From a phage: DNA of 1,224 bases. The DNA lies in the sequence record OR846179.1, one strand, 5' to 3'. The notes beneath the pieces were generated by a model. It had not been told where the DNA came from and made no database searches. It saw nothing but the letters and a program-made list of their open reading frames with translations. Position numbers and translations under genes: made by a program. Positions 1-774 of this stretch are shown here, piece by piece (the first letter of the stretch is position 1; the number at the start of each line of letters is the position of its first letter).

Positions 1-58
1 TTTTGTAGCTTTTGTCTTTTGGCTTTGCTGTCTCGACTTGTCTAGCATTGAGCTTCAT
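1..58 (-). CDS. int: 5' end of a P4-type tyrosine integrase gene (N-terminal arm-binding domain); partial, continues beyond the left window edge
   Basis: Minus-strand ATG at 58..56 opens a frame with no stop to position 1, translating MKLNARQVETAKPKDKSYK. The AKPKDK-YK pattern matches the conserved N-terminus of P4-family integrases as I recall it. Context supports it: an att-like core and arm-type repeats lie immediately upstream. Only 19 codons are visible; an in-frame alternative ATG exists at 70..68; no Shine-Dalgarno is evident. Confidence 0.5.
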   Translation of the reverse strand, partial: MKLNARQVETAKPKDKSYK

Positions 59-112
59 TTGGGGGCACATTTCTAATCGAAGTTAAGATGCCCCCAATTA
101 TGCCCCCAATGA
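58..112. repeat. Cluster of three TGCCCCCA(A) motifs, candidate arm-type integrase binding sites on the int side of the core
   Basis: tgccccca occurs on the minus strand at 60-67 (plus reads tgggggca) and on the plus strand at 89-96 and 101-108. The last two sit in a tandem 12-bp duplication: atgcccccaatt (88-99) and atgcccccaatg (100-111). Confidence 0.4.
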
Positions 113-126
113 CATCCGGATTTCAA
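97..126 (-). promoter_or_regulatory. Candidate sigma70-type promoter for int, overlapping the arm-type repeats
   Basis: On the minus strand, TTGAAA (plus 121-126) is a -35-like hexamer and CATAAT (plus 97-102) a -10-like hexamer, 18 bp apart, roughly 40 bp upstream of the int ATG at 58. Hexamer match only; no experimental support. Confidence 0.25.
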
Positions 127-222
127 CGGACAACCTCGGACGATCCAAGATCGTAGAAATCGCTGAAAGTATTGATTTTTAATGGATAATCGGACTTACT
201 CGGATGGACTTGGAAGTAATAA

Positions 223-246
223 TGGTGCCGAAGGCCGGACTCGAAC
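223..246 (-). other. Attachment-site core: 24-nt 3' end of a tRNA-Leu gene (T-loop, acceptor 3' strand, CCA); not a complete tRNA
   Basis: Minus strand reads GTTCGAGTCCGGCCTTCGGCACCA: T-loop TTCGAGT, T-stem 3' strand CCGGC, acceptor 3' strand CTTCGGC, discriminator A, CCA. This matches my recollection of the E. coli leuX 3' end. The sequence 5' of it (247-300) is AT-rich and cannot form the rest of a tRNA. Confidence 0.55.
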
Positions 247-296
247 ATCAAAATAAGTTAATGATAAAAAACAAATAATAAAACACAACAATGAAA

Positions 297-321
297 TATG
301 CCCCCTTTTGTGCCCCCACTG
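297..321 (+). repeat. Two further TGCCCCC motifs, candidate arm-type integrase sites on the other side of the core
   Basis: tgccccc at 299-305 and tgccccca at 311-318, same orientation, 12-bp spacing, about 55-70 bp from the core. Confidence 0.4.
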
Positions 322-387
322 TTTTTCTGACCAATCTATTTTCAGCCCATCAATAAATCGGAAAGTTAAATCATTTTTAATCAGTAA

Positions 388-414
388 GTTTGGATCCGTA
401 GCTCGGATCCAAAC
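388..414. repeat. Perfect 11-bp inverted repeat with 5-bp spacer (gtttggatccg-tagct-cggatccaaac); candidate protein-binding palindrome or hairpin
   Basis: 388-398 is the exact reverse complement of 404-414. It sits between the att-like region and the iteron repeats. No adjacent U-tract on either strand, so a classic terminator is unlikely. Confidence 0.5.
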
Positions 415-435
415 CAGTGCATCTTTTATCCACAT

Positions 436-555
436 AAAAAATTTTTTTTCGAAAGAACTGTTCACACTGTTCACCTTTCTGTTTTCTCCTTTTATTTCAG
501 TTTGATAGGTGGTGAATAATGGGTGAAGGGTGAACATTCGATTCTTCACCTCCGG
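436..555. repeat. Direct repeat copy 1 (~120 bp) of a crr/ori-like iteron region carrying TGTTCACC octamers
   Basis: Aligns to 617-736 at a 181-bp offset with high identity. Contains an A6T8 tract (436-449); exact TGTTCACC at 468-475 (+) and 529-536 (-); degenerate copies at 459-466 (+), 511-518 (-), 522-529 (-) and 543-550 (+). Confidence 0.7.
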
Positions 556-616
556 CATTCTGCCGGTGTGACTCATACCGGTGATTAATCCCCCGTACTG
601 AAATCACACAGGGAGA

Positions 617-736
617 AAAAAAGTTTTTTTTGATTTGATTGTTCACACTGTTCACCTTTCGTTTTTCTCTTTTAATTTCAGTGTGATAACTGGTGAATAT
701 ACGGTGAAGGGTGAACAGTGGATTGTTCACCTTCGG
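617..736. repeat. Direct repeat copy 2 (~120 bp) of a crr/ori-like iteron region carrying TGTTCACC octamers
   Basis: Contains an A6-g-T8 tract (617-631); exact TGTTCACC at 649-656 (+), 710-717 (-) and 724-731 (+); degenerate copies at 640-647 (+), 692-699 (-) and 703-710 (-). Confidence 0.7.
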
Positions 737-748
737 GGAATTCAGGGA

Positions 749-774
749 TAAAAAAAGACCGGCAGATGCCGGTC
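749..774 (-). terminator. Rho-independent terminator downstream of the primase-like CDS
   Basis: 7-bp GC-rich stem (757-763 gaccggc / 768-774 gccggtc), 4-nt loop, followed on the minus strand by a run of 7 U (plus-strand A run 750-756). It lies 16 nt past the stop codon at 793..791. Confidence 0.6.

Follow-up and report, generated by a model that had tools for sequence, protein, structure and literature searches.

The closest described counterparts of the locus analysed here are the two replication sites of phage P4: the origin (ori), at which synthesis starts, and crr, an accessory site that is required in cis and tolerates both inversion and an altered distance from ori. The type I iterons of P4 ori and crr are bound by the alpha protein via its C-terminal domain, and alpha bridges the two sites into loops; since this protein is both helicase and primase, the host DnaA, DnaB and DnaG proteins are reported to be dispensable. 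A second P4 origin, ori2, lies inside the alpha gene and is also served by crr, and the Cnr protein restrains P4 copy number through the binding of alpha to ori and crr. In plasmids, iteron clusters located away from the origin, such as incA of P1, act in copy control by 'handcuffing'; the second cluster of P4-type elements, unlike these, is positively required. Publications and GenBank feature tables have documented the P4 crr for decades. It has been described as a region required in cis for P4 replication (bioRxiv 10.64898/2026.03.30.715334), and alpha as a protein in which a primase is combined with an SF3 helicase and, at the C-terminus, with a winged-helix domain for DNA binding, 1ka8 (PMC2777425).

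We analysed a stretch of 1,224 nucleotides of phage DNA (OR846179.1), referred to here as the window, in which positions 436-736 had been proposed, from the sequence alone, to be a region like the crr and ori of P4. The whole window aligns with phage P4 (X51522 3857-5069) in a single end-to-end alignment with 96.1% identity, and 436-736 falls on X51522 4291-4590, which is annotated as crr. The X51522 feature table lists, for this homologous stretch, crr itself, two 'crr 120bp direct repeat' features and five 'ori type 1 repeat' octamers per repeat, occupying the same ten positions as in the window. An older P4 record, X05623, is annotated likewise, with crr at 2733-3032, and the P4 GenBank annotation describes crr as needed for replication. 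Identity to P4 amounts to 98.3% in the first repeat (436-555), 99.2% in the second (617-736), 90.2% in the spacer between them (556-616) and 98.8% in the 3' end of alpha (791-1224). The alignment to P4 crr and ori that the original prediction had proposed as its check thus supports it, both through the identity of the crr repeats and through the six copies of the same octamer in P4 ori. Judged by its sequence, the segment carries every feature that would mark it as a member of P4 crr, and we are highly confident that 436-736 is the non-coding crr of a P4-type satellite phage/plasmid, composed of two 120-bp iteron modules. As such it is a feature already known, with only trivial differences from the type example in P4.

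A repeat finder returned a single long direct-repeat family in the window, formed by 436-555 and 617-736 (both on the plus strand), two copies of 120 nt each that are 83% identical without gaps and have a start-to-start distance of 181. The top 120-nt diagonal holds 99 matches out of 120, whereas 100 shuffles averaged 51.7 and peaked at 56; the pair of 120-bp repeats 61 bp apart noted at the outset is thus borne out. The accompanying claim that each repeat starts with A6T8 stands for repeat 1, whose A/T tract is a clean A6T8 (436-449), and fails for repeat 2, whose tract reads A7-G-T8 (616-631), giving A6GT8 in register from 617.

Exact copies of the octamer TGTTCACC are found at five positions in the window (468 and 649 on the plus strand, 529 and 710 on the minus strand, and 724 on the plus strand), compared to an expectation of 0.06, and none of 200 shuffles reaches five. 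When one mismatch is allowed, the number of sites in the window rises to 11, where 1.17 are expected; ten fall inside the repeats (459, 468, 511, 529, 543, 640, 649, 692, 710 and 724), and a stray site is located at 1123, within the coding sequence and outside the repeats. Each 120-nt repeat therefore presents five octamers of this type, in both orientations. Those of repeat 1 are TGTTCACA at 459-466 (plus strand, one mismatch, 92% conserved across 16 homologues), TGTTCACC at 468-475 (plus, exact, 99%), TATTCACC at 511-518 (minus, one mismatch, 75%), TGTTCACC at 529-536 (minus, exact, 88%) and TCTTCACC at 543-550 (plus, one mismatch, 99%). Those of repeat 2 are TGTTCACA at 640-647 (plus, one mismatch), TGTTCACC at 649-656 (plus, exact), TATTCACC at 692-699 (minus, one mismatch) and two further exact copies, at 710-717 (minus) and 724-731 (plus). 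Two iteron-like copies with two mismatches, CCTTCACC, are situated on the minus strand at 522-529, abutting the iteron at 529-536 and unannotated in the P4 record, and at 703-710. Octamer spacing is 9, 43, 11, 7 and 14 in repeat 1 and the same in repeat 2. The count of five exact and seven near octamers given in the original prediction is hence reproduced, the latter comprising five one-mismatch copies and the two CCTTCACC copies.

All ten type 1 octamers annotated in P4 crr are identical in the window, base-by-base alignment revealing no differences within them, and in both elements the site lies between the alpha terminator and attP. The differences from P4 comprise TT in place of AG at 501-502, inside repeat 1; T in place of G at 691, inside repeat 2; an extra A at 616, which lengthens the spacer from 60 to 61 nt and the start-to-start distance from 180 to 181; and five substitutions in the spacer. 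As this copy departs from P4 crr only outside the octamers, its value as a discovery is small. A further difference from P4 is a 9-bp insertion at 779-787, in the gap that separates the alpha stop codon from the terminator and outside both the coding sequence and crr; this insertion resembles an imperfect tandem duplication of GGGTCAGGT (GTCAGGTGGGTC / GTCATGAGGGTC). The inter-repeat spacer contains a hairpin, CCGGCA-ttc-TGCCGG, at 552-566; the 14-nt segment holding it is absent from the 15 aligned crr homologues of other genera, indicating an insertion specific to the P4 lineage.

The P4 origin (ori1, X51522 about 9310-9413) resembles crr in carrying the same TGTTCACC octamer in both orientations and in its A/T-rich flanking sequence. 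Since it contains six exact copies of TGTTCACC, crr and ori have a recognition word in common. The origin differs in concentrating these six copies in approximately 100 bp without 120-bp direct repeats and in possessing three 'type 2' 10-mers, a repeat type for which the window has no copies. Comparison with the iterons of plasmids (P1 incA/incC, F and RK2) reveals likenesses of a more general kind, namely clustered short repeated sites for the initiator of the element itself and a second cluster away from the origin. In contrast, plasmid iterons measure 17-22 bp rather than the 8 bp of crr, and where plasmids employ a protein of the Rep/pi type, P4-type elements use as initiator a primase-helicase whose C-terminal domain is a winged helix.

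The gene adjoining crr is that of this initiator. The stretch 791-1224 encodes, on the minus strand, the last 143 codons and the stop codon (791-793) of alpha, with a Pfam match to Pox_D5 at 1.5e-17. A rho-independent terminator of the alpha transcript (t-alpha, 757-774, minus strand) is followed by a T run on that strand, and its stem is kept in all aligned homologues. As predicted, crr lies just downstream of the primase gene. The encoded product is 100% identical to PDB 1KA8 over 100 residues (37-136), which confirms the earlier suggestion that the adjacent coding sequence is the C-terminal domain of alpha. The 1KA8 deposition, titled 'putative P4-specific DNA primase', is the solved P4 origin-binding domain, and the alpha end in the window includes this winged-helix domain, which would recognise the iterons. 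Compared to P4 alpha, 141 of the 143 C-terminal residues are identical and both differences fall in the last 3 residues.

To place the region in a broader comparison, we fetched 76 loci from the Enterobacterales, one genome per species, using the alpha C-terminus as a probe. When the sequence beyond the alpha stop codon was searched for 8-mers with no motif given in advance, GGTGAACA (equivalent to TGTTCACC) ranked first in about 20 loci, and these same loci present a two-copy direct repeat with a spacing of 159-181 bp. An alignment of 16 crr homologues, 15 of which are 65-72% identical to the window across crr, was then used to measure conservation. Column conservation is 93% in the octamers, 70% in other repeat columns and 41% in the spacer, the difference between octamer and other columns being significant when columns are treated as independent (Mann-Whitney p = 6e-5). 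The sequence GGTGAAG (522-528 and 703-709), beside the octamers at 529 and 710, is nearly invariant in the alignment and the A/T tract is also conserved, while the spacer varies in both sequence and length and the start-to-start distance between repeats is tolerated from 159 to 181. At the level of the alignment, this is the footprint that two protein-binding modules connected by a linker would be expected to leave. Selection constrains the octamers across genera.

More distant P4-like elements depart from this arrangement. Those with alpha C-termini 75-81% identical present only 5-6 TGTTCAC cores downstream of alpha, apparently a single module without the 120-bp duplication, and in them T mostly replaces C after the TGTTCAC core and the 3' flank is altered. 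In Pantoea-type elements, with alpha C-termini about 70% identical, the TGTTCAC cluster is absent downstream of alpha. We tentatively propose, as a possibility suggested by these comparisons, that the 120-bp repeat may be a self-contained alpha-binding module with rigid octamer spacing and a freely evolving linker, that the two-module crr may have arisen through a recent duplication in one sub-lineage, and that the iteron may have co-evolved with the winged helix. If true, a lineage-specific duplication of crr would be an incremental point on a known system.

The element that carries this crr could be traced to bacterial chromosomes. Window positions 1-246, encompassing the start of int, the left attP arm and the att core, are 100% identical to DNA located beside tRNA-Leu in E. 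coli strain 7784 and many O157:H7 genomes, and positions 223-1224 match, at 99.8% identity, a segment of these chromosomes situated about 11.7 kb from the first. The 24-bp att core is common to both halves, and the window accordingly corresponds to the attP junction of an excised or circular prophage (or to a cut circular assembly). An exact-match search of a viral contig collection with this junction (196-250) gave no hit. The chromosomes hold a prophage of 11.7 kb at tRNA-Leu, and the window halves are its attL and attR ends; the crr segment (420-760) is 100% identical in these O157-type prophages. The close P4 relative represented by the window is a common prophage in E. coli O157:H7, and crr-like DNA was detected in 1158 of 5426 complete E. 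coli genomes, about a fifth. A search of a plasmid collection returned no plasmid-borne copy; the two matching records, of 1.2 and 4.8 Mb, look like mis-filed chromosomes or fragments of them. Contigs of 4-6 kb from bins labelled Ferruginibacter, 'Clostridiales bacterium', 'bacterium' and Ruminococcus (L005-L008) encode alpha proteins 93-99% identical to that of the window, and are almost certainly binning contamination.

Window positions 1-435 constitute a complete P4-type attP. Its 20-bp core (222-241), identical in P4 and at the 3' end of tRNA-Leu, is flanked on either side by ATGCCCCCAA-type arm repeats (85-111 and 295-321), and int starts at 70 on the minus strand, with its first 23 codons in the window. 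A tRNA scan of the window detected no tRNA gene, the 3' end of tRNA-Leu being present only as the att core. The left arm (71-221) is 88.7% identical to P4 and the right side (242-435) 99.5%, and this unequal identity suggests a mosaic or recombinant history. In a 12.2-kb chromosomal locus examined across its length (NZ_CP018247.1 5217600-5229800, L082), the attR core differs from the window core at 224, 226, 227, 228 and 243 and beyond it lies a second, truncated integrase gene, indicative of islands arrayed in tandem.

Given this setting, the region might be a relic in a defective prophage, conserved by recent common descent and serving no current function. The nearest copies are indeed prophages of clonal O157:H7 chromosomes with 99.8-100% identity, and because these genomes are clonal, identity among their copies is uninformative on selection. 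However, the O157-type prophage keeps full-length alpha and int, as well as psu, delta, a gene in the position of sid, a short DUF5375 gene in the position of P4 cnr (directly upstream of full-length alpha) and a six-iteron ori cluster; the continuous attP junction is the expected product of excision; and the octamers are selectively conserved across genera. We therefore regard the relic explanation as very unlikely for this crr, even though crr may have fallen out of use in many of the chromosomal copies, as these could belong to defective prophages.

The reading as a P4-type crr is further supported by the layout of the 12.2-kb locus. It holds 11 exact copies of TGTTCACC, six in an ori-like cluster at 6660-6763 and five in crr, 4.7 kb apart, and no exact copies were found elsewhere in its 12.2 kb. 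The prophage thus resembles P4 in presenting two octamer clusters 4.7 kb apart with alpha and a cnr-position gene between them, and differs from it in bearing a restriction-modification pair that replaces the gop/beta/cII cargo. Positions 1889-4296 of this locus encode, at the P4 gop/beta/cII position, an HTH protein, a type II restriction endonuclease and a DNA cytosine methyltransferase, in keeping with the variable region of defence cargo known from P4-like satellites.

By analogy with P4, replication of such an element would rely on an alpha protein composed of an N-terminal primase, a central SF3 helicase and a C-terminal winged helix, and encoded directly beside crr. The C-terminal domain of alpha would bind the crr octamers, and alpha would also bind the same octamers in ori1, about 4.7 kb off, across the cnr-alpha operon. 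Alpha bound at both sites would bridge ori and crr, with looping of the intervening DNA, and the resulting complex, needed in cis, would allow alpha to open the A/T-rich ori, load itself as helicase and prime, after which host DNA polymerase III would copy the genome bidirectionally. Cnr, encoded just upstream of alpha, would limit copy number via the binding of alpha at ori and crr. Within this scheme, crr may raise the local concentration of alpha or aid the complex that opens the A/T-rich ori.

A mainly negative role can also be envisaged, in which crr titrates alpha or 'handcuffs' ori and so holds copy number down. The layout of crr can be likened to that of copy-control iteron clusters away from the origin, such as incA of plasmid P1, and the cnr-position gene (DUF5375) lies directly upstream of alpha in the same operon. 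The P4 GenBank annotation and published engineering work (bioRxiv 10.64898/2026.03.30.715334), however, describe crr as required for replication. In P4, the outcome of deleting crr is reported to be a loss of replication rather than a rise in copy number. Negative and positive roles are not mutually exclusive, but a purely negative one contradicts the definition of crr, and we consider a mainly negative function highly improbable.

The least probable explanation, to which we assign almost no credence, is that a 126-aa ORF spanning repeat 1 on the minus strand (196-576) is a real gene and the repeats a repeated protein segment. The ORF does exist, a slightly shorter version of it being annotated by PGAP in NZ_CP018247 as the hypothetical protein WP_001481039.1, and the RefSeq P4 record (NC_001609) also has a 'hypothetical protein' feature under the window match. 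Nevertheless, the 126-aa frame is preserved in none of the 16 crr homologues, whose longest ORFs on the same strand measure 24-81 aa at inconsistent positions; 1-nt indels occur inside the repeat among homologues; conservation sits in 8-bp blocks of both orientations without a codon-like pattern; and repeat 2 lies outside the ORF. The protein-coding reading was rejected because the ORF is not conserved, and the hypothetical protein that PGAP places over crr probably arose as an artefact of annotation. A scan of the window for known structured RNAs gave only noise, as no Rfam family reached its gathering score (the best matches had 16-19 bits and E-values of 0.6-0.8, versus 46-135 bits required).

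Two further sequence elements lie ahead of repeat 1. A perfect match to the DnaA-box consensus, TTATCCACA, is located at 426-434, abutting the A6T8 of this repeat, and P4 has it too. The box is solitary and, with 0.30 expected at up to one mismatch, not significant, and no counterpart is conserved in crr homologues outside the P4 lineage; on these grounds it was rejected as a part of crr. P4 replication has been reported to be DnaA-independent. The second element is a perfect 11-bp inverted repeat, GTTTGGATCCG-tagct-CGGATCCAAAC, at 388-414 between attP and crr, which is unannotated in P4 and has a calculated energy of -12.4 kcal/mol as DNA (z = -8.6). Several homologues (L015, L024, L027 and L074) present an equivalent palindrome with changed bases (GGTTAGGATCCG.. 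/ ..CGGATCCTAACC). This inverted repeat may serve as a binding site for a protein, or it may terminate transcription that arrives from attP.

In E. coli genomes, PGAP and RefSeq annotations leave crr unmarked and place over it a hypothetical protein that is probably spurious. For P4-like elements, what appears to be mildly new is limited to comparative points, namely the modular conservation pattern of crr and the apparent single-module or module-free versions in diverged elements. The footprint defined by the ten octamers and the adjacent GGTGAAG sequence could guide the design of minimal replicons for P4-based delivery vectors.
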